Below, one piece after another: positions 44,680-64,000 of a stretch of 64,000 nucleotides of DNA. The notes under the pieces are model-generated. The model was not told where the DNA came from. It did no database searches and saw only the letters and a program-made list of their open reading frames with translations. How positions within the stretch are numbered: the stretch's first letter is position 1; each line of letters begins with the position of its first letter. Made by a program: the position numbers and the translations under genes. The stretch lies in assembly GCF_056712565.1 (NCBI RefSeq), contig NZ_CM160072.1; one strand, given 5' to 3'.

Positions 44680-44790
44680 TGCTCTATAAACTCCGTACAT
44701 CACTCAATGCAAGGAACCAGGCTACCGGCTGGATGTACGACCGTGTTTACGGAGTGTTTAGCACTCCGGCCTGATTCTGAATTCTTTTTA

Positions 44791-45279: not shown

Positions 45280-45362
45280 GTCTTACTTCACCTCAAACTC
45301 GCCCCTGCCCGGGGTTTTTTATTGTAAAAGTGGGGGTATTGCATAGCAGGGTCAAGTCTGAC

Positions 45363-45412
45363 ATTCCCGAGTAAATTGGTCAACTATTTACTTGACTGAT
45401 TTAGTCGGGTAT
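45363..45412 (-). promoter_or_regulatory. Tandem IscR type-1 operator sites in the iscR promoter
   Basis: Minus strand reads AAATAGTTGACCAATTTACTCGGGAAT and ATACCCGACTAAATCAGTCAAGTA, matching my recollection of the ATASYYGACTRwwwYAGTCRRSTAT IscR motif, located about 85-135 nt upstream of the iscR ATG. Confidence 0.5.
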
Positions 45413-45455
45413 TTAACCTTCAGTGCCATTTTTTATCGTGGCGTTTGTACCTGTT

Positions 45456-45541
45456 GTCGGATGCGGTGTGAACACCTTATCCGACCTGGGATTCCGTGCA
45501 CTTACAGGCCTGATAAGACGCGTTAAGCATCGCATCAGGCA
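45456..45541. repeat. BIME / REP pair between trmJ and the iscR promoter
   Basis: gtcggatgcggtgtgaacaccttatccgac and aggcctgataagacgcgttaagcatcgcatcaggc. Confidence 0.55.
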
Positions 45542-45548
45542 ACCACTG

Positions 45549-46289
45549 TTATTCGGCCTTGTTACCTTTATTCTGCTGCTCAATAGAAGCCAGAATCCCG
45601 CGCAGGATATTCAATTCCTGGCTTTCCGGGCGTGCACGGGTAAACAGACGGCGCAATTTATTCATCACCTGCCCCGGATGGTTTTCACGGATAAAACCGG
45701 TTGCCAGCAGCGTTTGCTCCAGATGACCATAAAAACGCTCCAGATCATCGACCAGCGGATACGGCGTCTCTTCATGCTCGACCTGCTCGCCATTTTCCTG
45801 AGTTGCCAGCCAGGCCATGCGCACTTCATAGGCAATAACCTGAACCGCCATCGCCAGGTTCAGCGAACTGTATTCCGGGTTAGCCGCAATCGCGACATGA
45901 TAATGGCATTTCTGCAACTCTTCATTGGTCAAGCCGACGCGCTCGCGACCAAACACCAGCGCCACCGGGGTATTTGCCGCTTCAGCGACGCTTTTCAGAC
46001 CGCATTCGCGCGGGTCGAGCATCGGCCACGGCAGCGTGCGGGAGCGAGCGCTGGTGCCCACCACCAGACTACAACCGGCTAACGCTTCGTCGAGCGTATC
46101 GACGATGTGAGCATTACCAATCACATCGCTGGCCCCTGCTGCCAGGGCAATCGCCTGGGAGTCTGGTTTCACTAGTGGATTAACCAGCCACAGATTGGTT
46201 AATCCCATTGTTTTCATGGCACGGGCAACAGAACCCATATTGCCGGTGTGTGACGTCTCCACCAGCACAATTCGAATATTTTGCAGCAT
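45549..46289 (-). CDS. trmJ: tRNA (cytidine/uridine-2'-O)-methyltransferase TrmJ (SPOUT family)
   Basis: 246 aa, [30 protein letters not shown]... Confidence 0.9.
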
Positions 46290-46407
46290 TGTCTTTCTTC
46301 ATCTAAAGATTATTCACGCATCTTATCATAAAACGAAGACAGATGCCGATCTCGCTGCTATACTCTGCGCCGTTTTCCCGTTCTTTAACATCCAGTGAGA
46401 GAGACCG

Positions 46408-47211
46408 ATGCATCCGATGCTGAACATCGCCGTGCGCGCAGCGCGCAAGGCGGGTAATTTAATTGCCAAAAACTATGAAACCCCGGACGCTGTAGAAGCG
46501 AGCCAGAAAGGCAGTAACGATTTCGTGACCAACGTAGATAAAGCTGCCGAAGCGGTGATTATCGACACGATTCGTAAATCTTACCCACAGCACACCATCA
46601 TCACCGAAGAAAGCGGTGAACTTGAAGGTACTGATCAGGATGTTCAATGGGTTATCGATCCACTGGATGGCACTACCAACTTTATCAAACGTCTGCCGCA
46701 CTTCGCGGTATCTATCGCCGTTCGTATCAAAGGCCGCACCGAAGTTGCTGTGGTATACGATCCTATGCGTAACGAACTGTTCACCGCCACTCGCGGTCAG
46801 GGCGCACAGCTGAACGGCTACCGTCTGCGCGGCAGCACCGCTCGCGATCTCGACGGTACTATTCTGGCGACCGGCTTCCCGTTCAAAGCAAAACAGTACG
46901 CCACTACCTACATCAACATCGTCGGCAAACTGTTCAACGAATGTGCAGACTTCCGTCGTACCGGTTCTGCGGCGCTGGATCTGGCTTACGTCGCTGCGGG
47001 TCGTGTTGACGGTTTCTTTGAAATCGGTCTGCGCCCGTGGGATTTCGCGGCAGGCGAGCTGCTGGTTCGTGAAGCAGGCGGCATCGTCAGCGACTTCACC
47101 GGTGGTCATAACTATATGCTGACCGGTAACATCGTTGCTGGTAACCCGCGCGTTGTTAAAGCCATGCTGGCGAACATGCGTGACGAGTTAAGCGACGCTC
47201 TGAAGCGTTAA
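46408..47211 (+). CDS. suhB: Inositol monophosphatase SuhB
   Basis: 267 aa, MHPMLNIAVRAARKAGNLIAKNYE...; IMPase motifs DPLDGT, WDFAAG. Confidence 0.95.
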   Translation: MHPMLNIAVRAARKAGNLIAKNYETPDAVEASQKGSNDFVTNVDKAAEAVIIDTIRKSYPQHTIITEESGELEGTDQDVQWVIDPLDGTTNFIKRLPHFAVSIAVRIKGRTEVAVVYDPMRNELFTATRGQGAQLNGYRLRGSTARDLDGTILATGFPFKAKQYATTYINIVGKLFNECADFRRTGSAALDLAYVAAGRVDGFFEIGLRPWDFAAGELLVREAGGIVSDFTGGHNYMLTGNIVAGNPRVVKAMLANMRDELSDALKR

Positions 47212-47218
47212 TGACTCA

Positions 47219-47252
47219 GGCGGGTGATATCACTCACCCGCCCTCGCCTTTC
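47219..47252 (+). terminator. Stem-loop downstream of suhB (putative terminator)
   Basis: ggcgggtga-tatcac-tcacccgcc (9-bp stem) followed by ctcgcctttc. Confidence 0.35.
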
Positions 47253-47355
47253 AGGCGCTATTCCGAAATACTTCCTCACCGCTTTACTTTCTTTCGTCAC
47301 TCTCCCACCATCTTTCCCCGATTAATGGATGATAAAGAAGTCGCAAGGAAAGGTT

Positions 47356-48210
47356 ATGGCGCTGCCAGTGAACAAACGCGTTCTCAAAATTCTGTTTATT
47401 CTCTTTGTTGTTGCCTTCTGCGTTTATTTAGTGCCGCGCGTCGCCATCAACTTCTTCTATTATCCTGACGATAAAATATACGGTCCCGACCCCTGGTCGG
47501 CGGAATCCGTCGAATTTACGGCTAAGGACGGTACTCGTCTGCAAGGCTGGTTTATTCCTTCTTCGACGGGCCCTGCTGACAACGCCATCGCAACCATCAT
47601 TCATGCTCACGGCAATGCCGGAAATATGTCCGCCCACTGGCCGCTGGTCAGTTGGTTACCCGAGCGTAATTTCAACGTTTTTATGTTTGATTATCGCGGG
47701 TTTGGTAAATCAAAAGGCACGCCGTCCCAGGCCGGATTGCTGGACGATACGCAAAGTGCCATCAATGTGGTGCGCCATCGCAGTGATGTAAACCCACAAC
47801 GGCTGGTGCTGTTCGGGCAGAGTATTGGCGGGGCGAATATTCTGGATGTTATTGGTCAGGGTGATCGTGAAGGCATACGTGCGGTGATCCTCGACTCCAC
47901 CTTTGCCTCTTATGCGACCATTGCCAACCAGATGATCCCCGGCAGTGGCTACTTACTTGATGAGAGTTACAGCGGCGAAAATTACATCGCCAGCGTCAGC
48001 CCGATCCCGCTTTTACTCATTCACGGTAAAGCTGATCACGTTATCCCATGGCAGCACAGTGAAAAGTTGTATAGCCTGGCAAAAGAACCAAAACGGTTGA
48101 TCCTAATCCCGGATGGCGAACACATTGATGCTTTTTCCGATCGTCACGGCGATGTTTATCGCGAACAGATGGTGGATTTTATTCTTAGCGCGTTGAATCC
48201 GCAGAACTAA
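47356..48210 (+). CDS. yfhR: Alpha/beta-hydrolase (S9-like peptidase) YfhR
   Basis: ATG at 47356 with AGGAAAGG RBS (MALPVNKRVLKILFILFVVAF..., TM anchor, GQSIGG nucleophile elbow). An in-frame ATG 27 nt upstream (47329) is the alternative start. Confidence 0.8.
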   Translation: MALPVNKRVLKILFILFVVAFCVYLVPRVAINFFYYPDDKIYGPDPWSAESVEFTAKDGTRLQGWFIPSSTGPADNAIATIIHAHGNAGNMSAHWPLVSWLPERNFNVFMFDYRGFGKSKGTPSQAGLLDDTQSAINVVRHRSDVNPQRLVLFGQSIGGANILDVIGQGDREGIRAVILDSTFASYATIANQMIPGSGYLLDESYSGENYIASVSPIPLLLIHGKADHVIPWQHSEKLYSLAKEPKRLILIPDGEHIDAFSDRHGDVYREQMVDFILSALNPQN

Positions 48211-48400
48211 CCCATGATCGCTAGCACGATAATCATTCACAAAACCACCTTAAGACATGCTAATCCACTGGTCAGAACAGTTTAAAATGAGAAAAATTCT
48301 GTGATGCTTGCCAACATTTCTGATGATTAGCATTCCCTTCGCCATTTCCCTGAGCAAACTTTAGCTATTCTTATCAATTATGCTTATGGGAGATCTACAG

Positions 48401-49681
48401 ATGATGCCTACGCTTGCTCCACCATCTGTCCTTTCGGCTCCCCAGCGCCGCTGCCAGATCTTGCTGACGCTCTTTCAGCCGGGGTTGACCGCCACCACGG
48501 CAACTTTCAGCGAGCTTAATGGTGTGGATGATGATATTGCCAGTCTTGATATCAGCGAAACAGGACGGGAGATCCTGCGCTATCATCAACTCACACTGAC
48601 TACTGGTTATGACGGTAGCTACCGGGTTGAAGGTACAGTGCTTAACCAACGTTTGTGTTTATTTCACTGGCTACGACGTGGTTTCCGTCTGTGTCCGTCA
48701 TTTATTACCAGCCATTTCACCCCCGCCCTGAAGAGTGAACTGAAGCGGCGCGGAATTGCGCGTAACTTTTACGACGATACCAATCTACAAGCGTTAGTGA
48801 ATCTCTGCTCCCGACGGCTGCAAAAACGCTTTGAAACGCGCGATATTCATTTCCTGTGTCTGTATCTGCAATATTGTTTGCTGCAACACCACGCTGGAAT
48901 TACGCCTCAGTTTAATCCGCTCCAACGTCGCTGGGCGGAATCCTGCCTTGAATTTCAGGTAGCGCAGGAAATTGGACGCCACTGGCAGCGTCGGGCGCTC
49001 CAGCCTGTACCGCCTGATGAGCCACTGTTTATGGCATTACTTTTTTCCATGTTGCGGGTTCCCGATCCACTGCGGGATGCGCATCAGCGGGACAGGCAAC
49101 TGCGTAAGTCTATCAAACGTCTGGTAAACCACTTTCGTGAGCTGGGAAATGTTCGTTTTTATGATGAACAGGGGTTATGCGATCAGCTTTATACCCACCT
49201 CGCCCAGGCGTTAAATCGCAGTTTGTTTGCCATCGGTATTGATAACACCCTGCCGGAAGAGTTCGCCCGCCTGTATCCACGCCTGGTGCGCACCACCCGC
49301 GCGGCGCTGGCTGGATTTGAAAGTGAATACGGCGTCCATCTTTCTGATGAGGAAAGCGGTCTGGTCGCGGTGATTTTTGGTGCCTGGCTAATGCAGGAAA
49401 ACGACCTGCATGAGAAACAGATTATTCTACTGACCGGGAATGATAGCGAGCGAGAAGCGCAGATTGAGCAGCAGCTACGCGAACTAACGTTACTGCCGCT
49501 CAACATTAAACATATGTCGGTAAAGGTATTTTTGCAGACAGGCGCTCCGCGCGGCGCGGCACTGATTATTGCTCCTTATACCATGCCGTTACCGCTCTTT
49601 TCACCACCGCTGATCTATACGGACCTGACGCTGACAACACATCAACAGGAGCAGATCCGCAAAATGCTCGAATCAGCATGA
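48401..49681 (+). CDS. csiE: Stationary-phase inducible protein CsiE
   Basis: 426 aa from MMPTLAPPSVLSAPQRRCQILLTLF...; ATG at 48401 with GGGAGA RBS. The 3' end overlaps the hcaT 3' end by 9 nt (convergent). Confidence 0.85.
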   Translation: MMPTLAPPSVLSAPQRRCQILLTLFQPGLTATTATFSELNGVDDDIASLDISETGREILRYHQLTLTTGYDGSYRVEGTVLNQRLCLFHWLRRGFRLCPSFITSHFTPALKSELKRRGIARNFYDDTNLQALVNLCSRRLQKRFETRDIHFLCLYLQYCLLQHHAGITPQFNPLQRRWAESCLEFQVAQEIGRHWQRRALQPVPPDEPLFMALLFSMLRVPDPLRDAHQRDRQLRKSIKRLVNHFRELGNVRFYDEQGLCDQLYTHLAQALNRSLFAIGIDNTLPEEFARLYPRLVRTTRAALAGFESEYGVHLSDEESGLVAVIFGAWLMQENDLHEKQIILLTGNDSEREAQIEQQLRELTLLPLNIKHMSVKVFLQTGAPRGAALIIAPYTMPLPLFSPPLIYTDLTLTTHQQEQIRKMLESA

Positions 49682-50812
49682 GGGAACAACTTTCGGGCGC
49701 AAAAACATTGCCGGAAGCGCCACCAGCGCCATCACCCAGAACACGCCGTGGCCGAGATATTGATACAGGAAACCGGCGAAAACGGTCATGATGGCGATAC
49801 TGCCGCCCATCGCGACGGCAGAGTAAACCGCCTGTAAACGGATGACTTCGCTACCCTGGCGAGCAGCAATATAGCGCATGGCAGCCAGGTGGCAGACCGT
49901 GAAGGTACCGCAATGCAGAATTTGCACCACTATCAACCACGGCAACGCCGTAGTTGCTCCCATAATGCCCCAGCGCACTACGCCGCAAATCGCCGAGATC
50001 AACAGCATATCGCGTGCACTACAACGGCGGAAAAGTTTATTACTCAGCGCAAAGATAATGACTTCCGCCACCACGCCCAGCGACCACAAATACCCCACCG
50101 CCGAGGCCGAGTAGCCAGCTGCCTGCCAGTAAATGGCGCTAAAACCGTAATAGGCCGCATGTGCCCCCTGCAATAAACAAACGCAGGCCAGAAAGCGCCA
50201 GTTCTGGCGAACCAACGCCAACCACGCAGACCAGCCGGTGCTCTCCTGCTGGCGGCTTGCCCCTTGTGGCTGAATCGTCGGACGGATGAGAAAGCCGAGC
50301 AGCATGGATGCCACGCCCAACGTCAACAGCGCGAGGATCACCCGATAATCAAACATACTGACCAGTTTGCCCGTCAGCGCCGAGCCAATGACAAACGCCA
50401 CCGAGCCCCACAGTCTCACTTTGCCGTAATCAAGCGGGAACTGCTTTTGCCACGTATTCGCCAGTGCATCGGTCAACGGTACCAGCGGTGAGAAAAAGAG
50501 GTTAAAGCCAATCATCACCAGCATCAGCCACGCTACGTGCGCCCCCGCCCAGAAGGCGACAGCAAAGAGAAGTGTCAGCAGTGCCAGCACGCGCAAGGCG
50601 GAAATCAGGCGGGAAGGATCGCTGACGCGGGGCGCGATGAGCAAACTCCCGAGGAAACGGGCAACCAGACCCGCCCCCAATAACAGGCCGATGGTTTCTG
50701 GCGTTAAACCAATCCCTTTAAGCCAGACGCTCCAGAAAGGTAGAAAAATGCCGTAACTAAAAAAGTATGTGAAATAGCCGAGCGCCAACCAGCGCGTGGA
50801 TTGCAAAACCAT
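49673..50812 (-). CDS. hcaT: MFS transporter HcaT (putative 3-phenylpropionate permease)
   Basis: 379 aa, 12 predicted TM segments, MVLQSTRWLALGYFTYFFSYGIFLPFWSVWLKG... Confidence 0.85.
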   Translation of the reverse strand: MVLQSTRWLALGYFTYFFSYGIFLPFWSVWLKGIGLTPETIGLLLGAGLVARFLGSLLIAPRVSDPSRLISALRVLALLTLLFAVAFWAGAHVAWLMLVMIGFNLFFSPLVPLTDALANTWQKQFPLDYGKVRLWGSVAFVIGSALTGKLVSMFDYRVILALLTLGVASMLLGFLIRPTIQPQGASRQQESTGWSAWLALVRQNWRFLACVCLLQGAHAAYYGFSAIYWQAAGYSASAVGYLWSLGVVAEVIIFALSNKLFRRCSARDMLLISAICGVVRWGIMGATTALPWLIVVQILHCGTFTVCHLAAMRYIAARQGSEVIRLQAVYSAVAMGGSIAIMTVFAGFLYQYLGHGVFWVMALVALPAMFLRPKVVPSC

Positions 50813-51015
50813 GAGTCCCTCCCGTCAGGAGGCGTTAGTCTGAGGTTAATCGAATGTTGGTGCAAGTTGAAAAATAAGAATATTCGAGCCTGCTTCCTGA
50901 CGGTTATCCTGCATATCAGGAAATGACAAAAAAGAGCGGCCCACAACACAACATGTAAAAAAGAACGATGAAACAGGTGAAAATCGCAATTTATTGAACT
51001 GACAAACTCATGTGA

Positions 51016-51048
51016 GACGGATAAGGCGTGCATGTCGCATCCGGCAGG
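51016..51048. repeat. REP element in the hcaT-yphA spacer
   Basis: gacggataaggcgtgcatgtcgcatccggcagg. Confidence 0.5.
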
Positions 51049-51180
51049 AAACAATAAGCACATTGTCAGCCATCTGCGTTATGCCGTTATACCAGAAACG
51101 AATATCTCAACGCCTGGGCGTGGCGAGGTACCAGAGTGTGTATTACGTTTAAATCACATCATCTTGCAAAGGGATTGGTT

Positions 51181-51603
51181 ATGAACTCACTACGTTATTT
51201 TGATTTTGGCACTGCCCGCCCCGTTTTATTATTAATTGCCCGTATCGCCGTGGTCTTAATTTTCATTATTTTTGGTTTTCCCAAAATGATGGGCTTTGGC
51301 GGTACGGTCCAATATATGGCCTCGCTGGGCGCACCAATGCCGATGCTGGCAGCGATTATTGCGGTAGTTATGGAAGTGCCCGCCGCGATATTAATCGTGC
51401 TTGGCTTTTTCACCCGTCCGCTGGCGGTGCTGTTTATTTTCTACACGCTGGGTACGGCGGTGATTGGCCACCATTACTGGGATATGACCGGCGATGCGGT
51501 TGGGCCAAATATGATTAATTTCTGGAAGAATGTCAGTATCGCTGGCGCATTCCTGCTGTTGGCAATTACCGGGCCGGGGGCGATTTCTCTCGATCGGCGT
51601 TAG
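51181..51603 (+). CDS. yphA: DoxX-family inner membrane protein YphA
   Basis: 140 aa from [28 protein letters not shown]...; ATG at 51181 with AGGGATTGG RBS. The track ORF has a 15-codon extension. Confidence 0.85.
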
Positions 51604-51607
51604 GAAA

Positions 51608-51755
<148 letters not shown>

Positions 51756-51762
51756 TTATAAA

Positions 51763-52635
51763 TTACAGCAACGCAACCCGCAACGACATCTCTGAAATTG
51801 TTGATTCCCCTGGTGCAAGCGCAATGAGGTCACCACCTTCCGGACGATGATGGTCATCCGGCGCATGGCTCATCGGTTCCAGACAGAAGAAATCAAACGC
51901 ATATCCTTTATCAAACGCCGGGTCGGAAACAAAGATGAAATAACACGGTGCAGGCGGCGTCGTTTCCATGATGATGGCATAACCCTCCTGCGGCTGCTCG
52001 ATGCGGGCCTGACCATTCCATCCGGCAAAACCATTGTTTACCCACTGGCGCGGTAACGGCGCGAGCTGGTTAAAATCCAGTTCCTGCGGTAGCTGCTCGC
52101 AAAACTCACCCGCCAGCCACTGCTCCTGCTCCCGCCAGTAACAGCTCGCCTGCGCCTGAATCCGCGTTTGTGGTGACAACGGAAAATAAGGATGCCAGCC
52201 GGTACCAAATGGCAGCGTCTCTGCCCCTTTATTGGTGACAGAGAGCGTCACCGTCAGCGTATCTGCCGTTAAATGAAACGCCTGACTTACCCGATAGTGA
52301 TAAACACCGCTGCGATGTTCATACACCAGACACAAGCTATCTTCGCTGCGCGAGACACATTGCCACTGCCCCAGCCAGGCATCACCGTGTAGATAGTGCG
52401 CATCCCACTCAACATTCGGTTGTAGTTGATATTCACGTCCCTGCCAGACAAAACGATTACCGCTCACCCGGTTTGCAAACGGCACCAGCGGAAAACAAGA
52501 GGCATCGGTTGCCACACCGCTTTTTTTACCAGGACGTAGCAGCGGCGTCGTATCGCGCCAGAAGCCTTCGATTACGCCGCCCTGATCAGAAACGTCCAGC
52601 TTTAGCGGCCCGTGAGATAAGGTATAGATGGTCAT
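51763..52635 (-). CDS. yphB: Aldose 1-epimerase family protein YphB
   Basis: 290 aa, MTIYTLSHGPLKLDVSDQGGVIEGFWRD... Confidence 0.85.
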   Translation of the reverse strand: MTIYTLSHGPLKLDVSDQGGVIEGFWRDTTPLLRPGKKSGVATDASCFPLVPFANRVSGNRFVWQGREYQLQPNVEWDAHYLHGDAWLGQWQCVSRSEDSLCLVYEHRSGVYHYRVSQAFHLTADTLTVTLSVTNKGAETLPFGTGWHPYFPLSPQTRIQAQASCYWREQEQWLAGEFCEQLPQELDFNQLAPLPRQWVNNGFAGWNGQARIEQPQEGYAIIMETTPPAPCYFIFVSDPAFDKGYAFDFFCLEPMSHAPDDHHRPEGGDLIALAPGESTISEMSLRVALL

Positions 52636-52646
52636 CCGCAGACTCC

Positions 52647-53708
52647 TTAATCCGGGAAATTAATCACAACTTTCCCGCATTTGCCGCTTGCCATCAGTGC
52701 ATAAGCATCTCCCGCCTGTTCCAGCGAGAAGCGGTGGGTAATGGCATTACGCGGCCACAGTTTCCAGTCCGTTAAATCGTGGGCGCATTTTTCCATATGG
52801 AACAGACTGGTCACCCAGGAGCCGATAATCCGCCGTTGATGGTGCATCAGGTCAGCGCTAACCTCGAACTCGACTTTTCCGGTTTCACCAATGTAAACCA
52901 CGCGTCCCCAGTCAGCGGTGGATTGCAGTGCCAGTAAGCGACCTGCGGCATTACCGGAACAATCAAGCGCAACATCCGCGCCGCCGTGAGTGAGTTCGGC
53001 GATTATCTGCGGCAGACCTTCGGTGGTCGCTAAATAGCCGTGATCCATCACTCCTAACTGTTTCGCCATCGCCAGACGTTCCGGCAACATATCAACGCCG
53101 ATGATCCTTTTTGCACCGCGACCTTTCGCCAGCATCATCGCCATCATGCCGACCGGCCCCAGACCGACCACCAGTACGTTATCACTGCCGGAAACTTCGC
53201 CGCGCAAAATCCCTTCATACGCTGTACCAACGCCGCAACTGATAAACGCACCATCTTCGTAACTCAGTGCATCCGGCAGGAGGATCAGATCTTTTTCTTC
53301 CGCCAGCAGGTATTCAGCATGGCCGCCGTCACGCTGCCAGCCGTAAGCGGCTTTTCCTTCACCGGTGCAGGAGATAGGAAAACCGCGACGGCAGTTCGGG
53401 CAAAAGCCACAACCGGAAATGTGATACACCAGCACGCGGTCGCCCTCTTTAAAATGGCGACAGCCTTGCCCCATCGCCACAATCTGCCCGCACGGTTCAT
53501 GACCGTTGATAAATCCCTGGTATAACGGTTTATCGGGTGCCGCCGCCGTAGCGCGGTGCTGGTGGTAGATATAGTGGACATCGCTTCCGCAAATCCCGGA
53601 GGATTTCATTTTGATCAGTACCTGGTTAATCCCCGGCGTCGGCACCGCAACTTCCCGCAGATCGACGGTCGAATTTCCTGGTAAATAAGCTGCCAGCATC
53701 GTTTTCAT
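52647..53708 (-). CDS. yphC: Zinc-dependent alcohol/polyol dehydrogenase YphC (MDR family)
   Basis: 353 aa from MKTMLAAYLPGNSTVDLREVAV...; GICGSDVH zinc-binding signature. The track ORF has an 11-codon extension. Confidence 0.85.
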   Translation of the reverse strand: MKTMLAAYLPGNSTVDLREVAVPTPGINQVLIKMKSSGICGSDVHYIYHQHRATAAAPDKPLYQGFINGHEPCGQIVAMGQGCRHFKEGDRVLVYHISGCGFCPNCRRGFPISCTGEGKAAYGWQRDGGHAEYLLAEEKDLILLPDALSYEDGAFISCGVGTAYEGILRGEVSGSDNVLVVGLGPVGMMAMMLAKGRGAKRIIGVDMLPERLAMAKQLGVMDHGYLATTEGLPQIIAELTHGGADVALDCSGNAAGRLLALQSTADWGRVVYIGETGKVEFEVSADLMHHQRRIIGSWVTSLFHMEKCAHDLTDWKLWPRNAITHRFSLEQAGDAYALMASGKCGKVVINFPD

Positions 53709-53773
53709 AAATCCCTCATTAACAATACGATTAATTTTCATCCCTGCCGCACCTGCGCCAGGGGCGTTAAGGT

Positions 53774-54772
53774 TTAGCGTTTCGCTTTACTGCTACGCTG
53801 GGTCAGCAAGATATTCGCCAGCACCGCCACCACGATGATGACGCCGCGCACCACCTGCTGGAAAAAGGAGTTAATCCCGAGCAGCACCAGACCGTTACCG
53901 ATTAGCGTAATCACCAGTACGCCAAGCAGCGTACCGAACAACGAGCCGCGACCGCCGGAAAGCGCCGTACCGCCGACAACGACCGCGGCGATGACGTCAA
54001 ACTCCAGACCGTTTGCGGCACCTGCGTTACCGGAACCGAGGCGCGCCGCCAACAAAATGCCGGTCACCGCCGCTAATAATCCCGAAAGGGTAAAAATAAG
54101 AATGCGTACCCGACGAACGTTAATACCGCACAACTGCGCTGCAGTGGCATTACCGCCAACAGCAAAAACCGAGCGCCCGAAGGCGGTTTTGCGGCTAATG
54201 AACACAAACAGCGCAAATAACACCATCATGATCAGCGCGGATACCGGCACCCCGAGAAATTGTCCGCCCAGCCAGTCCAGCACTTCGTTTTCGTTAATTG
54301 GCACTGGCAAGGCGTTCGTCATAAACAGCCCCATTCCGCGCAGGGCGCTCCATAAACCCAGCGTGGCAACAAAACTTGGCACGTTAAACACGCCGCGCAG
54401 CACCCCGGCGAGCGTTCCCATCAGCGCACCTAACAGCAACACCAGCAGACAAGCAATCGCCAGCGGAACGTCAAATTGCAGCAAAAACGCCAGGCACACT
54501 GAAACAAAAGCCACCATCGGCCCAACGCTGACATCAATTTCACCGGAGATAATAATCAGCGTCATCGCCCAGGCGGCGATCCCAATGGTGGCGGCATCGC
54601 GCAGCACGTTCATCTGGTTATTCAATGAGATAAAGCCAGGCGCATTCAGGGAGAAGACCAGATAAAGAATGGCAATCACCACCAGCAAACCGATCTCATT
54701 AATATGGCGACTGACAAATTGTTTGAGCGAGACGCTCTTGCCCTGCGGCAATGGTAATGACGAAGCAGACAT
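53774..54772 (-). CDS. yphD: ABC transporter permease YphD (RbsC-like sugar permease)
   Basis: 332 aa, multi-TM, branched-chain/sugar-type permease sequence. Confidence 0.85.
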   Translation of the reverse strand: MSASSLPLPQGKSVSLKQFVSRHINEIGLLVVIAILYLVFSLNAPGFISLNNQMNVLRDAATIGIAAWAMTLIIISGEIDVSVGPMVAFVSVCLAFLLQFDVPLAIACLLVLLLGALMGTLAGVLRGVFNVPSFVATLGLWSALRGMGLFMTNALPVPINENEVLDWLGGQFLGVPVSALIMMVLFALFVFISRKTAFGRSVFAVGGNATAAQLCGINVRRVRILIFTLSGLLAAVTGILLAARLGSGNAGAANGLEFDVIAAVVVGGTALSGGRGSLFGTLLGVLVITLIGNGLVLLGINSFFQQVVRGVIIVVAVLANILLTQRSSKAKR

Positions 54773-54796
54773 CTTCAGGTTCCTCGGTAAAATTCA

Positions 54797-56308
54797 TCAG
54801 TGCACAGACAGAATGGCGGACATCAGCTCATCCACATTGACCGGAGAGTGAAACTCCTGCGAGAACGTACCGTGCTGTAACAACAGAATGCGGTCGCACA
54901 CCAACGGTAACTCCTCCACTTCACTGGAGATAAACACCACGCTTTTTCCTTCGGCAGCCAGCTCGCGGACAATACGGTAAATCTGCTGTTTGGCTTCGAT
55001 ATCGACGCCGCGCGTTGGCTCGTCGAGCAACAAAATCTGGCTGGCGGCATAGACCCAACGACCGATCACCACTTTTTGCTGATTGCCGCCAGAAAGCGTG
55101 CCGATGGGCGTTTCGCTACTGGCGGCCTTGACCGTCATCCGCTGCATCACCTCTTCGGTCAGGCGGCGGATGGTGGACCATTGCAGCACACCGTTGGCGC
55201 TGATTTTTTGCCGATTGGTCAGCACTGTATTTTCGTCAACGCCCAACCAGGGAATGATCCCCGCTTCTTTGCGGTTTTCTGGCGTATAGCCAATGCCGCG
55301 TTTCAGCATGTCGCCGTAATCGGGGCGCGTGATTTTCTCGCCGTTGATAACAATTTCGCCCTGTTCATACGTCTCCAGCCCAACAATCGCCTTCAGCAAT
55401 TCACTGCGCCCTGCCCCCAGCAGACCAGCAATGCCGAGCACTTCGCCACAACGTAGCGTAAAACTGATATCCTCCAGCTTGGGCTTATGGCGTAACGCAC
55501 GGACTTCCAGCACGGCTTGATCCATAATTTCCTGAGGGGCAACCGGCGCAATATCAACGTGATCGCGCCCGAGCATTAGCGACACAATATGATGCGTAGA
55601 GGTGTTTTCGAGCATCACATCGCCCGCCACCTGACCATCGCGCATAACGGTGGCACAGGAGGCAATGCGGCGAATTTCTTCCATCCGGTGGCTGACATAA
55701 ATCACCGCCACGCCCAGTGCCGACATCTTTTTCACCGCGCTGATCACCAGTTCAACTTCCGCACTGGCAAGCGAGCTGGTGGGTTCATCAAGAATGACCA
55801 CGCGCGGCTCGCCCTTCATCACCCGCGCAATTTCCACCAGTTGCTTTTGCGCCGGGCTTAGTGTTGAAACAAGTTGTTCAGGACTAACGTCAACGCCCAA
55901 CGCCTGCAAGCAACGTTGGGCGTCCTGCGCCATTTGCAGGTAATCAATCATGCCGTTGCGGCGGGGCCACTGACCGAGGCAGAGGTTTTCCGCCACTGTC
56001 AGCCCTTCCACCAGACTTAACTCCTGATAAACCGCACGAACCCCCAGTTCAGCGGCACGGCGAGTCAGCGTAGCTTCGTCACCTTCCAGTCGCGTCTCGC
56101 CAATCCAGATATCACCGCTATCCGGACGTTCGCTACCGGTCAGCATTCGAATGAGGGTCGATTTTCCCGCACCGTTTTTGCCTAACAGCGCGCGAACTTC
56201 GCCTTTATTGAGCGTGAAGTTAACGTTATCCAGCGCAACGACGCCGGGGTAACGCTTATTTCCTGCCACCACTTTTGCTACCGGGACTGCCTCTGTTGCC
56301 GTGAACAT
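54797..56308 (-). CDS. yphE: ABC transporter ATP-binding protein YphE (duplicated ATPase, RbsA-like)
   Basis: 503 aa; two Walker A sites (GKNGAGKST and a second in the C-terminal half) and the LSGGNQQKV signature. Confidence 0.9.
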   Translation of the reverse strand: MFTATEAVPVAKVVAGNKRYPGVVALDNVNFTLNKGEVRALLGKNGAGKSTLIRMLTGSERPDSGDIWIGETRLEGDEATLTRRAAELGVRAVYQELSLVEGLTVAENLCLGQWPRRNGMIDYLQMAQDAQRCLQALGVDVSPEQLVSTLSPAQKQLVEIARVMKGEPRVVILDEPTSSLASAEVELVISAVKKMSALGVAVIYVSHRMEEIRRIASCATVMRDGQVAGDVMLENTSTHHIVSLMLGRDHVDIAPVAPQEIMDQAVLEVRALRHKPKLEDISFTLRCGEVLGIAGLLGAGRSELLKAIVGLETYEQGEIVINGEKITRPDYGDMLKRGIGYTPENRKEAGIIPWLGVDENTVLTNRQKISANGVLQWSTIRRLTEEVMQRMTVKAASSETPIGTLSGGNQQKVVIGRWVYAASQILLLDEPTRGVDIEAKQQIYRIVRELAAEGKSVVFISSEVEELPLVCDRILLLQHGTFSQEFHSPVNVDELMSAILSVH

Positions 56309-56330
56309 AGGGACCTCTGCGAATCAGCGA

Positions 56331-57314
56331 TTAGGGCAGACCATCAACGTGCGTTGCCAGCCACTGTTTACCGTCTTCCGTTTTGGTATAGAGATCGATT
56401 GGCACCTGAATCACTTTTTCACCGTCGGCTTGTTTATTGATAACCTTCAATGTTTGCGCGAAAACAGCATTGCCCATTTTCTTACCGGAAATATCCACCA
56501 CCGCTTTCAGCACCTGGTTGTTTTCCAGCTCCTGAGCAATTTCAGTGGTCATATCAGAACCGAAAACAGCAATTTTTCCGGCCTGATTTTGATTACGTAC
56601 CGCTTTTACCGCGCCGAGTGTCGCTCCGCCCGATTCCCCCATAATGGCGTTGAGATCCGGCGTGGAGATAATCAGTTTTTCACCGACAGAAATCGCTTTA
56701 TCTAAAACAGTCCCTTCCTGATTAGCGACAATTTGCGCGCCGGGAACGCGGGTTTTTAATACTTCTTCAAACCCTTTACGACGTTGCACACAAACTTCAA
56801 AGGCTTCGCAATTGATGACGGCAATTTTCGGCTGGTCAATTTTGTTGGCAATAAAATAATCGGCGGCTGCGTTACCCAGTTTTTTACCAAATTCCAGCGG
56901 GTCACCAACCAGATATGCCGAGACATATTTATCGACACCCTTTTGATTAATACAGGTGTTGTAGCAAATCACCGGAATACCCGCTTCACTGGCGCGACGA
57001 ACGGTACGGCTACTGCCATTTTCAGACACTGCCGATAAAATAATGGCATCGACATTACGCTCCACGAGGGTATCAACAAAGGTACTTTCTTTCGAAATAT
57101 CGCCCTGAGCGTTAGTTTCAATTAATTGTACCTGTACTGAAGAATCTTTTGCCGCATCCTGAACGCCCTGACGCACTCCGGCGTAATATCCCTGGGTATC
57201 AAGGTATATTGCGCCAATAGTCATTTCTTTATCAGAAGCCCTGGCAAATAGTGCGCTACCCAATAGCGTAGCCATTAATAATAAATTACGGGTTCTTGTC
57301 ATTTTTTTAGGCAT
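56331..57314 (-). CDS. yphF: Periplasmic sugar-binding protein YphF
   Basis: 327 aa; signal peptide MPKKMTRTRNLLLMATLLGSALFARA; type-I periplasmic binding fold. Confidence 0.85.
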   Translation of the reverse strand: MPKKMTRTRNLLLMATLLGSALFARASDKEMTIGAIYLDTQGYYAGVRQGVQDAAKDSSVQVQLIETNAQGDISKESTFVDTLVERNVDAIILSAVSENGSSRTVRRASEAGIPVICYNTCINQKGVDKYVSAYLVGDPLEFGKKLGNAAADYFIANKIDQPKIAVINCEAFEVCVQRRKGFEEVLKTRVPGAQIVANQEGTVLDKAISVGEKLIISTPDLNAIMGESGGATLGAVKAVRNQNQAGKIAVFGSDMTTEIAQELENNQVLKAVVDISGKKMGNAVFAQTLKVINKQADGEKVIQVPIDLYTKTEDGKQWLATHVDGLP

Positions 57315-57410
57315 AGTGCCTCCTGTAGGGTTTTTATTTACAACGGCTTATTTTAATTATTTGAGCGTGAGCGGCAGCGCGTGCCGCTCAAATATTACAG
57401 TTAATAGGGT

Positions 57411-60400
57411 TTAGTGAACGTAGCTAAAAATAAAAGGCATCACGGTGGTGAATAATGCCGCTTTCGGCCAGGCTGGATTAATCGCCATCAATTCAGCGCG
57501 AGCAGATTCATAGTGCGCAACCTCCCCTAATCCCGCGGCCGCCAGCATCGCCACCATCAGGCATTTTTCTTTATGCTGCTGTTGTAAATCGCTATACAGC
57601 GACAACAAGTCAGGCTGCGAGACGGCAAAGAAATCCGCTTCGATACTGGTTTTCGCCATCTCTTTCGCCCACTGTTTCATTTCACTAAACAGTTGCTGTG
57701 CGGTGTGTTGTTCGCCCAGCAGTCGCAGCGCCATTCCTTGCCAGAAGAGATAATCAACCGGCTGATCGTTGTAATAACTGTGGATGTTAATGGTGCGATC
57801 GCCGGTCGCCGCCAGACGTAAACAACGCATCGCTTCAGTTTCATCGCCCTGCGCGTTGGCGCATACTGCCTGCCAGAACCAGATGTCGTTGTCAGTTTGC
57901 CCCGGTAAACGGCCTTCGCTTAAATTCTCCGGATAATGCAGCGCGGCATGAAGCAGTTCGCTGGCCTGCTGCGGCTCTCTGGCATCAAGATGCTGCCAGG
58001 CGCGTAATAACTGGTTGAGGATAAACTGGCTGGTGACCTTCCCTTCCCCACCTTCCCACGGGTGGAATTTGCGCGTGGCGAGAATGTCCGCCGCTTTGTC
58101 TGCCTGACCAGTGAGATGCCACAAATTGAGCAGTTCTGCGGTCATGTCGTCGCGTTTCAGCGCAATTTCCAGATTATTTTCCAGACGCGCCAGTCGTTTC
58201 TCCGGTGTGACACCGCTTAACTTATCCAGCAAATCCCGTTCGAAAAGCAGACGTGCATCCTGCGGCGCAAGCTGATAAGCATTATCAAGATAACGCGCGG
58301 CCAGCTCATAATCGTGCTGCTTATTCCACGCATGGATCGCCAACCCGCGCCAGCCGTCGGCAAACTCCGGCGACATCTCTACGCAACGCTGCCATAAGGC
58401 AATGGCTTTACCGTAGCTACGCTTGTTGTAGTAGAAGCAGGCCAGTAAATGCCGGGCAAACCAGCACTCTTCGATACTCTCCAGCGCCGCCACTTCTTCC
58501 AGCGTATTCGGGAAACGGACAAACTGCGGGAAGGCATCAATAGCTTTTACGACCAGTTCTCCGCGTTCAGCTTTTGGTAGCAAACTGGCTTGCAGGTAAA
58601 GCGGTAGCGTGCGCTGACAGTCCAGTGCGTTCAGCATATCTGCCGCCAGGGCGGGCATGCCCCAGTTAATCAGTTGCCCGGCGGTCATCAGGGCGTTAAC
58701 GTCGCGTCCCTGACAAAGACCTCGCCACTGTACGAGGGCAGATTCGCTACGACCATCGAACCAGTTCAGCCACCACAGAGTAGCGTTCAGCGGATAATCA
58801 CGCAGCAGTTTCTCGCGCTGCAAACGCGCGTTGTCCTGACGACCACTTAACACCAGTAGCAGGTTATGCAGGCAAAGCACTTCCTGATTGGTTGGGCAGG
58901 CGCGAAGACTTTGTTGGCAAAAATCCAGACCAGCGTCAAAGTTACCATTACGCGCCGCCAGCCGTGCCAGACCATAATAGCCGCCTGCTTTACTGTTGCC
59001 GCTCCAGACCGCACGCCAGAAATCCTCTTCGGCTTGTTGATATTGCCCCTGACGTTCGTAAGCACTGGCGCGAATCAAACTCGCCTGTCCGCACTGCGGA
59101 TTTTTGTTCAGCGCATGTGCGCGTTTCAGCGCCTGAGTGGCATACGCCACCGCTTGCGGGAAATCGGCACGGTTATATTCCAGCATCGCCAGCGCCAGGT
59201 TACAGCGATAATCCAGCGGATCCAGCGCCACGCCGCGCAGGTAGTAATCGAACGGTGAACGGCTCGCGTGATGATATTGCTCCAGATGTTGACCGATAAA
59301 CCAGGCTTCATCTGTACTGGTAATGTCTTGTGCTGCCAGTGGCGCTTTGGCGACGTCCGGCAACGGCAACGCTTGCGACTGATGTTCATGATAACTCAGT
59401 ACAATATTGCCGTCGGCATCGGAGAGCTCAATGGTCAGCCTTTCAGGATTGATACCGTGCAACACGCCCTGGATGGCGGTCGCTGGTGTCAGGGCCACGG
59501 CATCATCGAGCAACGCGTTGCATTTGCCGATTTCGCGGATCGCCAGGCGGTATCCGTTCAACGGAGAGATGGCATACAGCCCCCACTCAATCCCCCGCTC
59601 ACTACGCTGGAGTTTTATCACCGCATCGCGGGAGGCATTTTGCACCATGCCCAGAGAATGATAAGGCAGGAAATACTGCTCGAAACGCTTCTCCTCGTAA
59701 GCATCAAGCCAGGTAAAATCAGGCTGGTTATCGGCAAAAATACCGGTCATCAGTTCGATATACGGGCCGTTATTGTCAGTCAGGCTCTTATCCCACGCCT
59801 GGCCAAATTCACTGTGTCCCCAGCTCCACTGTTTTTTACCTGGCGCAATATGGTGGTTGGCAACGTGTAGCAAACCACCATCTTCATCGTGACACCACGC
59901 GCCAACAAAATCGTACTGTGATTTTTCAGCCATATATGAGGTTGGAACGGGCACATTTTTATAGCGAGAAATGTCCACTCCGGCGGAGTAGTCCACTTTG
60001 TAGTAAGTGCCGGTGGCGATGGGGAAAGCGGAGACGGCCCGTTTACCGTGATCAAACACCGCAGTCACATCCGGTGGGAAAACGCTCTGATGCCCTTCAC
60101 CCCCTTTCACTGCCGGGTTGGCCCACCACAAGAAATGACGCGGCGTGGCGTTGCCGTTATAGACGCGACTGGCGATTTCCAGCGCCGCCCGGTCAGGGCG
60201 CAGGGTGAAACCTGTCATCACCTGTAAACCGTGCATCGGCTCCGTTTCGCCGACCCACACCGTCTGTGCGCCGTCGTCATGGGCTTCGAGGGTGAAATCA
60301 ACGGGCATAAAGGTGGTCGGGCGATGGTGTTGCGGCCAGTTAAACTCAATCCCGCCGGAGATCCACGGCCCCAGCAGTCCCACCAGCGCCGGTTTAATGA

Positions 60401-60692
60401 CTTCATTGTGATAAACAAAATCGCGCTGTTTCACTTTATCCCACGCGCGATGCACCCGACCGCCCAGTTCCGGCAGGATCATCACTTTGATGTAGTCGTT
60501 TTCCAGCCACACCGCCTGCCAGGATTTCAGGGTTTTCTGCTCGCTCAGCGTATCGGTCACGCCGTAGGGATAAACCGCGCCGGACGATCCCTGATAAACG
60601 CGATTTTCCAGGAACATGGGATGTATATCCTGCGGCCCGGTTTCATAGGTCGGGATCTCAACGCGCTCTTGCCACACTTTTACTGGAGTCAT
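57411..60692 (-). CDS. yphG: Large TPR-containing protein YphG
   Basis: 1093 aa from MTPVKVWQERVEIPTYETGPQD...; ATG at 60690-60692 with GAGGG RBS. The track ORF has a 31-codon extension. Confidence 0.8.
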   Translation of the reverse strand: MTPVKVWQERVEIPTYETGPQDIHPMFLENRVYQGSSGAVYPYGVTDTLSEQKTLKSWQAVWLENDYIKVMILPELGGRVHRAWDKVKQRDFVYHNEVIKPALVGLLGPWISGGIEFNWPQHHRPTTFMPVDFTLEAHDDGAQTVWVGETEPMHGLQVMTGFTLRPDRAALEIASRVYNGNATPRHFLWWANPAVKGGEGHQSVFPPDVTAVFDHGKRAVSAFPIATGTYYKVDYSAGVDISRYKNVPVPTSYMAEKSQYDFVGAWCHDEDGGLLHVANHHIAPGKKQWSWGHSEFGQAWDKSLTDNNGPYIELMTGIFADNQPDFTWLDAYEEKRFEQYFLPYHSLGMVQNASRDAVIKLQRSERGIEWGLYAISPLNGYRLAIREIGKCNALLDDAVALTPATAIQGVLHGINPERLTIELSDADGNIVLSYHEHQSQALPLPDVAKAPLAAQDITSTDEAWFIGQHLEQYHHASRSPFDYYLRGVALDPLDYRCNLALAMLEYNRADFPQAVAYATQALKRAHALNKNPQCGQASLIRASAYERQGQYQQAEEDFWRAVWSGNSKAGGYYGLARLAARNGNFDAGLDFCQQSLRACPTNQEVLCLHNLLLVLSGRQDNARLQREKLLRDYPLNATLWWLNWFDGRSESALVQWRGLCQGRDVNALMTAGQLINWGMPALAADMLNALDCQRTLPLYLQASLLPKAERGELVVKAIDAFPQFVRFPNTLEEVAALESIEECWFARHLLACFYYNKRSYGKAIALWQRCVEMSPEFADGWRGLAIHAWNKQHDYELAARYLDNAYQLAPQDARLLFERDLLDKLSGVTPEKRLARLENNLEIALKRDDMTAELLNLWHLTGQADKAADILATRKFHPWEGGEGKVTSQFILNQLLRAWQHLDAREPQQASELLHAALHYPENLSEGRLPGQTDNDIWFWQAVCANAQGDETEAMRCLRLAATGDRTINIHSYYNDQPVDYLFWQGMALRLLGEQHTAQQLFSEMKQWAKEMAKTSIEADFFAVSQPDLLSLYSDLQQQHKEKCLMVAMLAAAGLGEVAHYESARAELMAINPAWPKAALFTTVMPFIFSYVH

Positions 60693-60809
60693 GGTGCCCT
60701 CAATATTAACAAGACATACTGAATTAAAAGATTTGTGGCAGTGTATTGAACAATCTGGCAATGTTTTCGCGGAATAATCACGCAATTAACTAAACAAGGT
60801 TTAGTAAAG

Positions 60810-62003
60810 ATGAGAGCCTGCATTAACAATCAACAGATTCGCCACCATAACAAATGCGTGATTCTGGAACTGCTGTACCGGCAAAAGCGCGCCAATAAAT
60901 CAACGCTGGCCCGGCTGGCGCAAATTTCGATTCCGGCGGTCAGTAATATTTTGCAGGAACTGGAAAGCGAAAAACGGGTGGTGAATATCGACGATGAAAG
61001 CCAGACGCGCGGGCATAGTAGCGGTACATGGCTGATTGCGCCGGAAGGAGACTGGACGCTGTGCCTGAACGTGACGCCCACCAGCATTGAGTGTCAGGTC
61101 GCTAATGCCTGTTTAAGTCCGAAAGGCGAATTTGAGTATTTACAGATTGATGCACCGACGCCGCAGGCGCTGCTGTCCGAAATCGAAAAATGCTGGCATC
61201 GCCACCGTAAATTGTGGCCGGACCGCACCATCAATCTGGCTCTGGCAATCCACGGTCAGGTTGATCCAGTGACCGGCGTGTCGCAAACCATGCCGCAAGC
61301 GCCGTGGGCAACACCGATTGAGGTGAAGTACCTGCTGGAAGAGAAGCTGGGCATTCGGGTAATGGTCGATAATGACTGCGTGATGCTGGCGCTGGCGGAG
61401 AAATGGCAAAATAATTCACAAGTGCGTGATTTCTGCGTAATCAACGTTGATTACGGCATTGGCTCGTCGTTCGTGATTAACGAGCAAATTTATCGCGGCA
61501 GTTTGTATGGCAGTGGACAGATTGGTCACACCATCGTTAATCCGGATGGCGTCGTCTGCGACTGCGGGCGTTATGGCTGCCTGGAAACCGTCGCCTCGTT
61601 AAGCGCATTAAAAAAACAGGCGCGGGTATGGCTAAAATCACAACCGGTTAATACTCAGCTTGATCCTGAAAAATTGACTACCGCGCAGTTAATCGCTGCC
61701 TGGCAGAGTGGAGAACCGTGGATCACCAGTTGGGTTGACCACAGTGCCAACGCCATTGGTTTGAGTCTGTATAACTTCCTCAACATCCTCAATATTAATC
61801 AGATTTGGTTGTACGGTCGCAGTTGTGCCTTTGGTGAGAACTGGCTTAATACCATTATTCGCCAGACGGGATTTAACCCGTTCGACCGCGACGAAGGACC
61901 GAGCGTGAAAGCGACACAGATTGGCTTTGGGCAATTAAGCCGCGCACAACAGGTACTGGGAATTGGCTATTTGTATGTTGAGGCGCAGTTACGGCAGATT
62001 TGA
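60810..62003 (+). CDS. yphH: ROK-family regulator / sugar kinase homologue YphH
   Basis: 397 aa; N-terminal HTH, ROK core with the C.CG..GC zinc motif (CDCGRYGCLE). Confidence 0.85.
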   Translation: MRACINNQQIRHHNKCVILELLYRQKRANKSTLARLAQISIPAVSNILQELESEKRVVNIDDESQTRGHSSGTWLIAPEGDWTLCLNVTPTSIECQVANACLSPKGEFEYLQIDAPTPQALLSEIEKCWHRHRKLWPDRTINLALAIHGQVDPVTGVSQTMPQAPWATPIEVKYLLEEKLGIRVMVDNDCVMLALAEKWQNNSQVRDFCVINVDYGIGSSFVINEQIYRGSLYGSGQIGHTIVNPDGVVCDCGRYGCLETVASLSALKKQARVWLKSQPVNTQLDPEKLTTAQLIAAWQSGEPWITSWVDHSANAIGLSLYNFLNILNINQIWLYGRSCAFGENWLNTIIRQTGFNPFDRDEGPSVKATQIGFGQLSRAQQVLGIGYLYVEAQLRQI

Positions 62004-62016
62004 TGGCGCGATAACG

Positions 62017-62047
62017 TAGAAAGGCTTCCCGAAGGAAGCCTTTTTTC
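62017..62047. terminator. Bidirectional intrinsic terminator between yphH and glyA
   Basis: gtagaaa-ggcttcc-cgaa-ggaagcc-tttttt: perfect 7-bp GC-rich stem flanked by an A-run and a T-run. Confidence 0.6.
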
Positions 62048-62066
62048 AACAGATTAACCGTTTCGC

Positions 62067-63320
62067 TTATGCGTAAACCGGGTAACGTGCGCAGATGTCG
62101 AGAACTTTACCTTTGATGCGCTCGATAACGGCTTCATCATTGATGCTGTCCAGCACGTCACACATCCAGCCAGCCAGTTCTTTCGCTTCGGCTTCTTTAA
62201 AGCCACGACGGGTAATCGCCGGAGTACCTACACGAATACCGGAAGTCACAAACGGGCTCTTCGGATCGTTCGGTACGCTGTTTTTGTTCACGGTGATGTT
62301 AGCACGGCCCAGAGCGGCGTCTGCTTCTTTACCGGTCAGGTTTTTATCAACCAGATCAACCAGGAACAGGTGGTTATCAGTACCACCAGAAACCACTTTG
62401 TAGCCACGTTCGAGGAACACTTCTACCATCGCTTTGGCGTTTTTCGCGACCTGCTGCTGGTAAGTTTTGAACTCAGGTTCCATTGCTTCTTTCAGAGCAA
62501 CCGCTTTACCGGCGATTACGTGCATCAACGGACCGCCCTGACCACCAGGGAAAACGGCAGAGTTCAGTTTTTTGTACAGCTCTTCGCTACCACCTTTCGC
62601 CAGGATCAGGCCGCCGCGCGGACCCGCCAGGGTTTTGTGAGTGGTGGTAGTAACAACGTGAGCATGAGGAACCGGGTTAGGGTAGACACCAGCGGCAACC
62701 AGGCCCGCAACGTGCGCCATATCAACGAACAGGTAAGCACCGATGCTGTCAGCGATTTCACGCATTTTCGCCCAGTCCACCACGCCGGAATATGCAGAGA
62801 AGCCACCGATAATCATTTTCGGTTTGTGTTCTTTGGCTTGTTTTTCCAGATCGGCGTAGTCGATATGACCGGTAGCATCGATACCGTAAGGAACGATGTT
62901 GTACAGTTTACCGGAGAAGTTAACCGGAGAACCGTGAGTCAGGTGACCGCCATGCGCCAGATTCATACCCAGAACGGTATCGCCTGGTTCCAGCAACGCG
63001 GTGTAGACCGCAAAGTTAGCCTGGGAGCCGGAGTGCGGCTGGACGTTAGCGTAGTCAGCGCCGAACAGTTCTTTCGCACGATCGATCGCCAGTTGTTCAA
63101 CGATATCAACATACTCGCAACCGCCGTAGTAGCGTTTGCCCGGATAACCTTCAGCATATTTGTTGGTCAGCTGAGAACCCTGCGCCTGCATTACGCGCGG
63201 GCTGGTGTAGTTTTCGGAGGCGATCAGTTCGATGTGCTCTTCCTGACGTACTTTTTCCTGCTCCATAGCCTGCCACAGTTCGGCATCATAATCGGCAATG
63301 TTCATTTCACGCTTTAACAT
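62067..63320 (-). CDS. glyA: Serine hydroxymethyltransferase
   Basis: 417 aa from [43 protein letters not shown]...; PLP site [14 protein letters not shown]. Confidence 0.97.
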
Positions 63321-63598
63321 CCGCATCTCCTGACTCAGCTAACAATAAAATTTTTGGCCTTTATAGGCGGTCCTGTTGGACAACGGCGAACAGTATAACC
63401 GAATCATTGTGCGATAACAGGTCTTGACAAAGGAATTTACGCAAACGATTACCTTCAGGCTACGCAAGGCTTTGGAGAATAAAGAGCTTGCAACCGGAAA
63501 CGGATTTCTTTTCAGGTTTGTGATGCAAATTTTTCACTTCATCACATTCTTTCTGAAAAACACCAAAGAACCATTTACATTGCAGGGCTATTTTTTAT

Positions 63599-63621
63599 AA
63601 GATGTATTTGAGATACATCAA
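63599..63621. promoter_or_regulatory. NsrR-type operator (11-1-11 inverted repeat) in the hmp promoter
   Basis: AAGATGTATTT-G-AGATACATCAA about 30 nt upstream of the hmp ATG, matching my recollection of the AAGATGYATTT-N-AAATRCATCTT NsrR consensus. Confidence 0.45.
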
Positions 63622-63648
63622 TTAAGATGCAAAAAAAAGGAAGACCAT

Positions 63649-64000
63649 ATGCTTGACGCTCAAACCATCGCTACAGTAAAAGCCACCATCCCTTTACTGG
63701 TGGAAACGGGACCAAAGTTAACCGCCCATTTCTACGACCGTATGTTTACTCATAACCCAGAACTCAAAGAAATTTTTAACATGAGTAACCAGCGTAATGG
63801 CGATCAACGTGAAGCCCTGTTTAACGCTATTGCCGCCTACGCCAGCAATATTGAAAACCTGCCTGCGCTGCTGCCAGCGGTAGAAAAAATCGCGCAGAAG
63901 CACACCAGTTTCCAGATCAAACCGGAACAGTACAACATCGTCGGTGAACACCTGTTGGCAACGCTGGACGAAATGTTCAGCCCGGGGCAGGAAGTGCTGG
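63649..64000 (+). CDS. hmp: Flavohemoglobin (NO dioxygenase), 3'-partial (runs off window end)
   Basis: [65 protein letters not shown]...: globin domain N-terminus, ATG with GGAAG RBS. Confidence 0.9.

Follow-up and report, generated by a model that had tools for sequence, protein, structure and literature searches.

Could the inverted repeat in front of the flavohaemoprotein gene hmp be an operator of the repressor NsrR, and would its palindromic form be enough to say so? The question arises from a sequence-only reading of the stretch of DNA analysed here (64,000 nucleotides in full, hereafter the window), in which an 11-1-11 palindrome overlapping the hmp promoter was considered consistent with repression that responds to nitric oxide (NO). 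Our answer to the first part is that the 23-bp element is very probably (about 0.93) the NsrR operator of the hmp promoter, repressing by promoter occlusion. It should be noted that this operator is already known and that the regulation of hmp by NsrR is textbook knowledge, so the new details are confined to an ST95-type haplotype of the site and to the weak NsrR score of the site in Escherichia. The sequence, position, motif match, conservation and allele frequencies of the element, as well as the distribution of nsrR across E. coli, come from the present analysis; the occupancy of the orthologous promoter, its loss with an NO donor and the transcription start site are taken from the literature. 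From these together we infer that NsrR binds the allele present in the window, which carries a T where K-12 has a C, and that occlusion is the mode of repression.

The 23-bp element and the hmp promoter

The features of the hmp promoter region and its neighbouring genes are as follows, in coordinates of the window.

62067..63326, minus strand: glyA (serine hydroxymethyltransferase), the divergent neighbour of hmp
63574..63579, plus strand: -35-like hexamer TTTACA, from a consensus scan; near-invariant in 78 species
63598..63603, plus strand: -10-like hexamer TAAGAT, from a consensus scan; overlapped by the left half-site; TATAAGATG is near-invariant across species
63599..63621, no strand assigned: probable NsrR operator, an 11-1-11 inverted repeat, from the motif match, the CFT073 orthologue (PMC5320621) and 78 species
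63601..63607, no strand assigned: left arm GATGTAT of the perfect 7-nt core; fits the Rodionov core gATGyAT-(N5)-ATrCATc
63611, plus strand: equivalent of the K-12 hmp transcription start (the A after TTTG), from Fig. S3 of Rodionov et al. (2005)
63613..63619, no strand assigned: right arm ATACATC of the perfect 7-nt core, from an inverted-repeat scan
63624..63634, plus strand: weak half-site-like motif AAGATGCAAAA in the 5' UTR, with the direct repeat TAAGATG; not conserved outside Escherichia
63649..64000, plus strand: 5' part of hmp (hmpA, NO-inducible flavohaemoprotein), which runs beyond the end of the window

The 23-mer AAGATGTATTTGAGATACATCAA occupies positions 63599-63621 of the window and is read as AAGATGTATTT-G-AGATACATCAA in the 11-1-11 register. 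Its placement directly 5' of hmp was correctly recognized from the letters alone, since the site ends 27 nt before the start codon at 63649, and RefSeq annotation on identical DNA names the downstream gene hmpA, an NO-inducible flavohaemoprotein. The palindrome was likewise given with its exact sequence and position, but its symmetry is imperfect: 8 of the 11 positions are self-complementary, with a perfect 7-nt core, GATGTAT/ATACATC, whose arms are 5 nt apart. Is symmetry of this degree informative? In the same register, the 64-kb window contains 121 23-mers with at least 8/11 complementarity and 11 with a perfect 7-nt core. The symmetry of the palindrome alone is therefore not above chance, and we rejected it as evidence for an operator.

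The -35-like hexamer TTTACA and the -10-like hexamer TAAGAT are separated by a spacer of 18 nt in the consensus scan, and the experimentally mapped K-12 hmp start shown in Fig. S3 of Rodionov et al. (2005; PMC1274295), when carried over from K-12, corresponds to 63611, that is, position 13 of the 23-mer. Judged by its position relative to TAAGAT and 63611, the operator extends from about -12 to +11 and takes in the start as well as the -10 hexamer.

Further repeats are found in the same region. Between glyA and hmp, at 63519-63546, there is an inverted repeat TGTGATG/CATCACA with arms 14 nt apart, lying in a block that is near-invariant across the 78 species; TGCAAATTTTTCA, within this repeat, resembles the MetR consensus. 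In the 5' UTR, 25 nt downstream of the left half-site, AAGATGCAAAA at 63624-63634 repeats the beginning of that half-site, and its CFT073 counterpart has been described as a single NsrR motif of low score, labelled 'hmp (19)' (PMC5320621).

Then, does the sequence of the element, rather than its symmetry, point to NsrR? A symmetrised weight matrix was built from 25 CFT073 NsrR sites with the 11-1-11 layout (Table 4 of Mehta et al., 2015; PMC5320621), with hmp omitted; despite this omission the matrix is mildly circular, because the sites had themselves been picked with a motif to which hmp contributed. Among all 23-mers in the 64 kb, the hmp site has the top score, 17.2 bits (the 25 reference sites themselves score between 12.3 and 32.2 bits), while first-order Markov simulations predict 0.05 matches of at least 17.2 bits per 64 kb. 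The scan thus bears out the NsrR-like identity for which it had been proposed as a check. In addition, the hmp site is the sole match in the window to the consensus AAGATGYATTTNAAATRCATCTT with no more than three mismatches, and 100 dinucleotide shuffles contained no such match. Consequently, the specific sequence match, unlike the symmetry, exceeds what is expected by chance. The agreement with the half-site consensus AAGATGYATTT is complete on the left (11/11) and partial on the right (8/11).

Lower-scoring matches to the matrix were also considered and set aside. The second-best one, TTCATATATTAAATATAAATGAT at 19159-19181, falls in a gap of very high AT content, 134 nt upstream of a 735-aa open reading frame (16818-19025, minus strand). 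Its 13.75 bits are no more than the best score that simulated sequence reaches on average (13.6), so that it is probably a chance match. Another, at 43292-43314, is also at chance level and falls within a 128-aa open reading frame (43051-43437, minus strand), whose product we take to be IscU.

NsrR occupancy and conservation across Enterobacteriaceae

Is the site actually occupied by NsrR? For the orthologous promoters there is published evidence. Mehta et al. (2015; PMC5320621) list for CFT073 the sequence AAGATGCATTTGAGATACATCAA, given as the reverse complement, which is the hmp 11-1-11 NsrR site, and report an NsrR ChIP-seq peak of 3.8-fold between glyA and hmp in this strain, whose NsrR is identical to that of K-12. 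The modest size of the peak suggests that the hmp site is an operator of moderate affinity. In EDL933, an NO donor abolishes the NsrR ChIP signal on the hmpA promoter (PMC3887101), and in Salmonella, NsrR shifts an hmp-promoter probe in gels, the shift being weakened by NO (PMC10783083). The same hmp site had earlier been predicted, and found to be conserved in enterobacteria, by Rodionov et al. (2005; PMC1274295). These occupancy data concern the C allele of E. coli, plus Salmonella. The regulator gene lies outside the window; nsrR occurs at no less than 95% identity in 5425 of the 5426 complete E. coli genomes, and this near-universality in the species makes it probable that the present genome carries nsrR as well.

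Conservation was followed through the family with one genome per species. Scanning with the first 117 residues of Hmp gave 80 Enterobacteriaceae loci, 78 of which had enough upstream DNA, and for each locus the best match to the NsrR matrix was taken from the 200 nt upstream of hmp. An NsrR-type 23-mer is present at the equivalent place in all 78 loci, with its first base 41-61 nt (in most loci 48-50) upstream of the hmp ATG and a score of 17-30 bits. These sites start with AAGATGYA, a few loci having AACATGCA instead. Column conservation averages 0.91 for the 23-mer and 0.87 for the -35 hexamer and spacer, compared with 0.62 downstream (63622-63638, up to the ribosome-binding site). However, the whole glyA-hmp intergenic region is well conserved, and therefore this footprint is supportive and not decisive alone. 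The Escherichia operator has the lowest NsrR score among the 78 species, 17.2 bits against 20-30 bits. With ChIP at the orthologous site in CFT073 and EDL933, the loss of signal with the NO donor and the conservation in 78 species, the NO-responsive repression of hmp suggested at the outset is supported.

The relation of the site to other operators could be summarized as follows. The near-perfect reference, the ytfE operator AAGATGCATTTAAAATGCATCTT, shares with hmp the 11-1-11 layout and the AAGATGYATTT half-site, but it is fully symmetric and scores 32 bits (being itself a training site of the matrix) compared with 17 bits for hmp, which departs from the ytfE symmetry at positions 14, 22 and 23. 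The orthologous operator of Salmonella Typhimurium, AAGATGCATTTGATATACATCAT, departs from the window site at three positions (7, 14 and 23) and reaches about 25 bits; the same 23-mer is found in four Citrobacter loci. The site of the Klebsiella or Enterobacter type is TTTAAAATACATCAT. Among other operators of the Rrf2 family, such as the IscR sites and the hmpA1 site of Streptomyces coelicolor NsrR (PDB 7B0C), the repressor is likewise a winged-helix dimer, placed over the promoter on an inverted repeat that is AT-rich and about 23 bp long, whereas the half-site sequences differ.

Under the proposed mechanism, a dimer of the Rrf2-family protein NsrR carrying an iron-sulfur cluster would bind both 11-bp half-sites. 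Bound in this way, it would mask the transcription start together with the -10 hexamer; RNA polymerase would thereby be excluded and hmp kept off. Nitric oxide would then damage the cluster and release NsrR from the DNA, and the NO-detoxifying flavohaemoglobin would be produced. FNR may add anaerobic repression through TTGAGATACATCAA.

The nested FNR-like box and other explanations of the repeat

Could the element primarily belong to FNR? One further feature has to be considered here.

63608..63621, plus strand: FNR-like box TTGAGATACATCAA, in agreement with TTGAT-N4-ATCAA at 9/10 positions; contained within the right part of the NsrR site

The box has the form TTGAG-N4-ATCAA, that is, the right 14 bp of the hmp site resemble FNR operators at 9 of 10 positions. 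If 63608-63621 were primarily an FNR operator serving anaerobic repression, the likeness to NsrR sites would be incidental. Binding of FNR and anaerobic repression of hmp were reportedly described by Poole in 1996 and Cruz-Ramos in 2002, as cited in later papers. An FNR site is marked at hmp in Fig. S3 of PMC1274295, where it is held to be conserved in E. coli and Salmonella only (Rodionov et al., PMC1274295), and in passages of the citing literature the anaerobic repression of hmp by FNR is treated as established. However, FNR matches with a single mismatch turn up often: the window has 6 of them, where 2.2 would be expected by chance. The match alone is therefore weak and not statistically distinctive. 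It is also restricted to certain lineages: a match of at least 9/10 at the site occurs in 11 of the 78 loci, one per species (Escherichia and some Citrobacter), yet the left half-site AAGATGYAT, a part that the FNR box does not include, hardly varies in any of the 78 species. Moreover, occupancy by NsrR is documented by ChIP. Deletion of nsrR in K-12 is said, in work by Bodenmiller and Spiro from 2006, to derepress hmp strongly under aerobic conditions, when FNR is inactive. An element that is primarily an FNR operator is accordingly improbable, and we regard FNR as an additional regulator acting on the right part of the site, alongside NsrR and not in its place.

The bases at which the Escherichia site deviates, G14, A22 and A23, are those that create the FNR-like box. 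The weak NsrR score in Escherichia suggests that there may be a trade-off between NsrR and FNR sharing one site. Elsewhere in the window, a perfect FNR consensus, TTGATATTCATCAA, is found at 31056-31069 inside a 1653-aa open reading frame (30918-35879, minus strand), where it is probably due to chance.

An inverted repeat could also act as a hairpin of RNA (or single-stranded DNA) in the hmp leader, affecting the stability or translation of the mRNA. Folded as RNA, 63596-63648 indeed gives an 8-bp stem with -7.4 kcal/mol and a z-score of -3.3 against shuffles, but the mapped start (63611) lies inside the loop, so that the left arm is absent from the mRNA. Among the 39 distinct species variants, furthermore, the pair 7-17 is non-complementary (C/A) in 24, K-12 included, and the pair 2-22 in 29. 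That these pairs are so often non-complementary points to selection on the half-site sequence and not on base pairing, which leaves a hairpin with very little probability. Finally, the repeat could be an accidental palindrome of an AT-rich promoter that does not function as an operator. The abundance of comparably symmetric 23-mers would speak for this reading, but it is ruled out by the motif statistics (the top score in the window and the empty shuffles), by the equivalent placement of a site in 78 species and by the ChIP data published for the orthologous site.

The ST95-type allele of the operator

Is the NsrR operator in the window the same as that of K-12? The window DNA is E. coli, and 5425 of the 5426 complete E. 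coli genomes contain its 374-nt promoter region at an identity of at least 95%. In the aligned promoter region there are two differences from K-12.

63606, plus strand: T in place of the K-12 C, from the alignment; position 7 of the half-site; minor allele of ST95-type strains, 5 nt before the start
63631..63638, plus strand: run of A8, against A7 in K-12, within the 5' UTR; linked with the T allele

The comparison with the K-12 hmp promoter, which the sequence-only reading had proposed as a check, therefore gives an operator that is orthologous but not identical, differing by C>T at 63606 and accompanied by A8 instead of A7 at 63631-63638. The K-12/CFT073 operator AAGATGCATTTGAGATACATCAA lies at the orthologous locus, has 22 of the 23 bases in common with the window site, stands at the same place with respect to the -10 hexamer, the start and the ATG, and shares the nested FNR-like box. 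It is the T at 63606 that makes the 7-nt core in the window fully symmetric, K-12 having C there. The A8 run is located upstream of the ribosome-binding site, and consequently the spacing to the ATG is unchanged.

How frequent is this version? Allele counts were obtained from the exact-match identity bands of short BLAST queries against the 5426 complete E. coli genomes. For the 61-mer 63570-63630, the T allele is exact in 133 genomes and the K-12 version in 5158; the palindrome is thus conserved in other E. coli hmp promoters, its absence from which had been named as the observation that would speak against the operator. The 61-mer 63600-63660, with T plus A8, is exact in 124 of the 5426, i.e. 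124 of the 133 T-allele genomes. It should be noted that this second query returned T-allele genomes only, probably because the A run was masked by the low-complexity filter and no 28-nt seed for the C allele was left, and its result is used solely for the count of T plus A8, not species-wide.

The carriers of the T allele include UTI89, S88, APEC O1, IHE3034, NU14, UM146, PMV-1 and a strain named ST95-32, which, judged by the strain names, are members of phylogroup B2 and, within it, of the ST95 lineage. The C allele is found in CFT073, which is also B2, and this argues that T was derived within the ST95 branch. The T allele is also present in O55:H7 DEC5B and in the soil isolate VCSW8, both apparently outside ST95, which hints at recurrence or recombination. 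The stretch 44000-64000 of the window is 100% identical to E. coli S88, APEC O1, MS7163, SF-468 and others, most E. coli being at 95-99%, and from this 20-kb identity the window comes from an ST95-type extra-intestinal pathogenic strain. The sequence string of the T allele gave no match in a literature search of the searchable full-text collection.

A further allele, which we simply call rare (its identity-band count is 16 against 4 rows at 100%), was seen in E. coli NCTC10444, where L002 546-606 corresponds to 63570-63630 of the window. It has G>A at position 14 and an NsrR score of 25 bits, and its downstream half-site reads AAGATAC, not AAGATGC; O145:H28 strains are one mismatch from this form.

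Would the T allele behave differently? With the weight matrix it scores 17.2 bits and the K-12 allele 18.0 bits, a decrease of 0.8 bit. Of the 50 reference half-sites, 31 have C and 16 have T at position 7. Upstream of hmp this position is mostly C across species, with T in several Citrobacter and one Leclercia, and the half-site is quoted as AAGATGTATTT, i.e. in the T form, in PMC10783083. The variant formed by C>T at 63606 and the extra A stays within the NsrR consensus and would most likely leave the mechanism unchanged. A more speculative possibility is that the ST95-type haplotype (T at position 7 with A8) is a functional regulatory allele that, in this extra-intestinal pathogenic lineage, shifts the expression of hmp at baseline or the NO level at which it is induced. 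Its effect would be exerted through an altered affinity for NsrR or through an altered behaviour of the open complex, the SNP lying between the -10 hexamer and the start, and the same T would have arisen independently in the hmp operators of Citrobacter and Leclercia. We give this whole proposal low odds because position 7 is degenerate in the consensus and the change in score is small.

As for the biology of E. coli and its relatives, the operator is the means by which NsrR would hold a costly, superoxide-generating flavohaemoglobin off until nitric oxide is present. A minor allele of the operator marks 133 of the 5426 E. coli genomes, and the Escherichia site is the weakest of the 78; neither alters the current understanding of how hmp is regulated.
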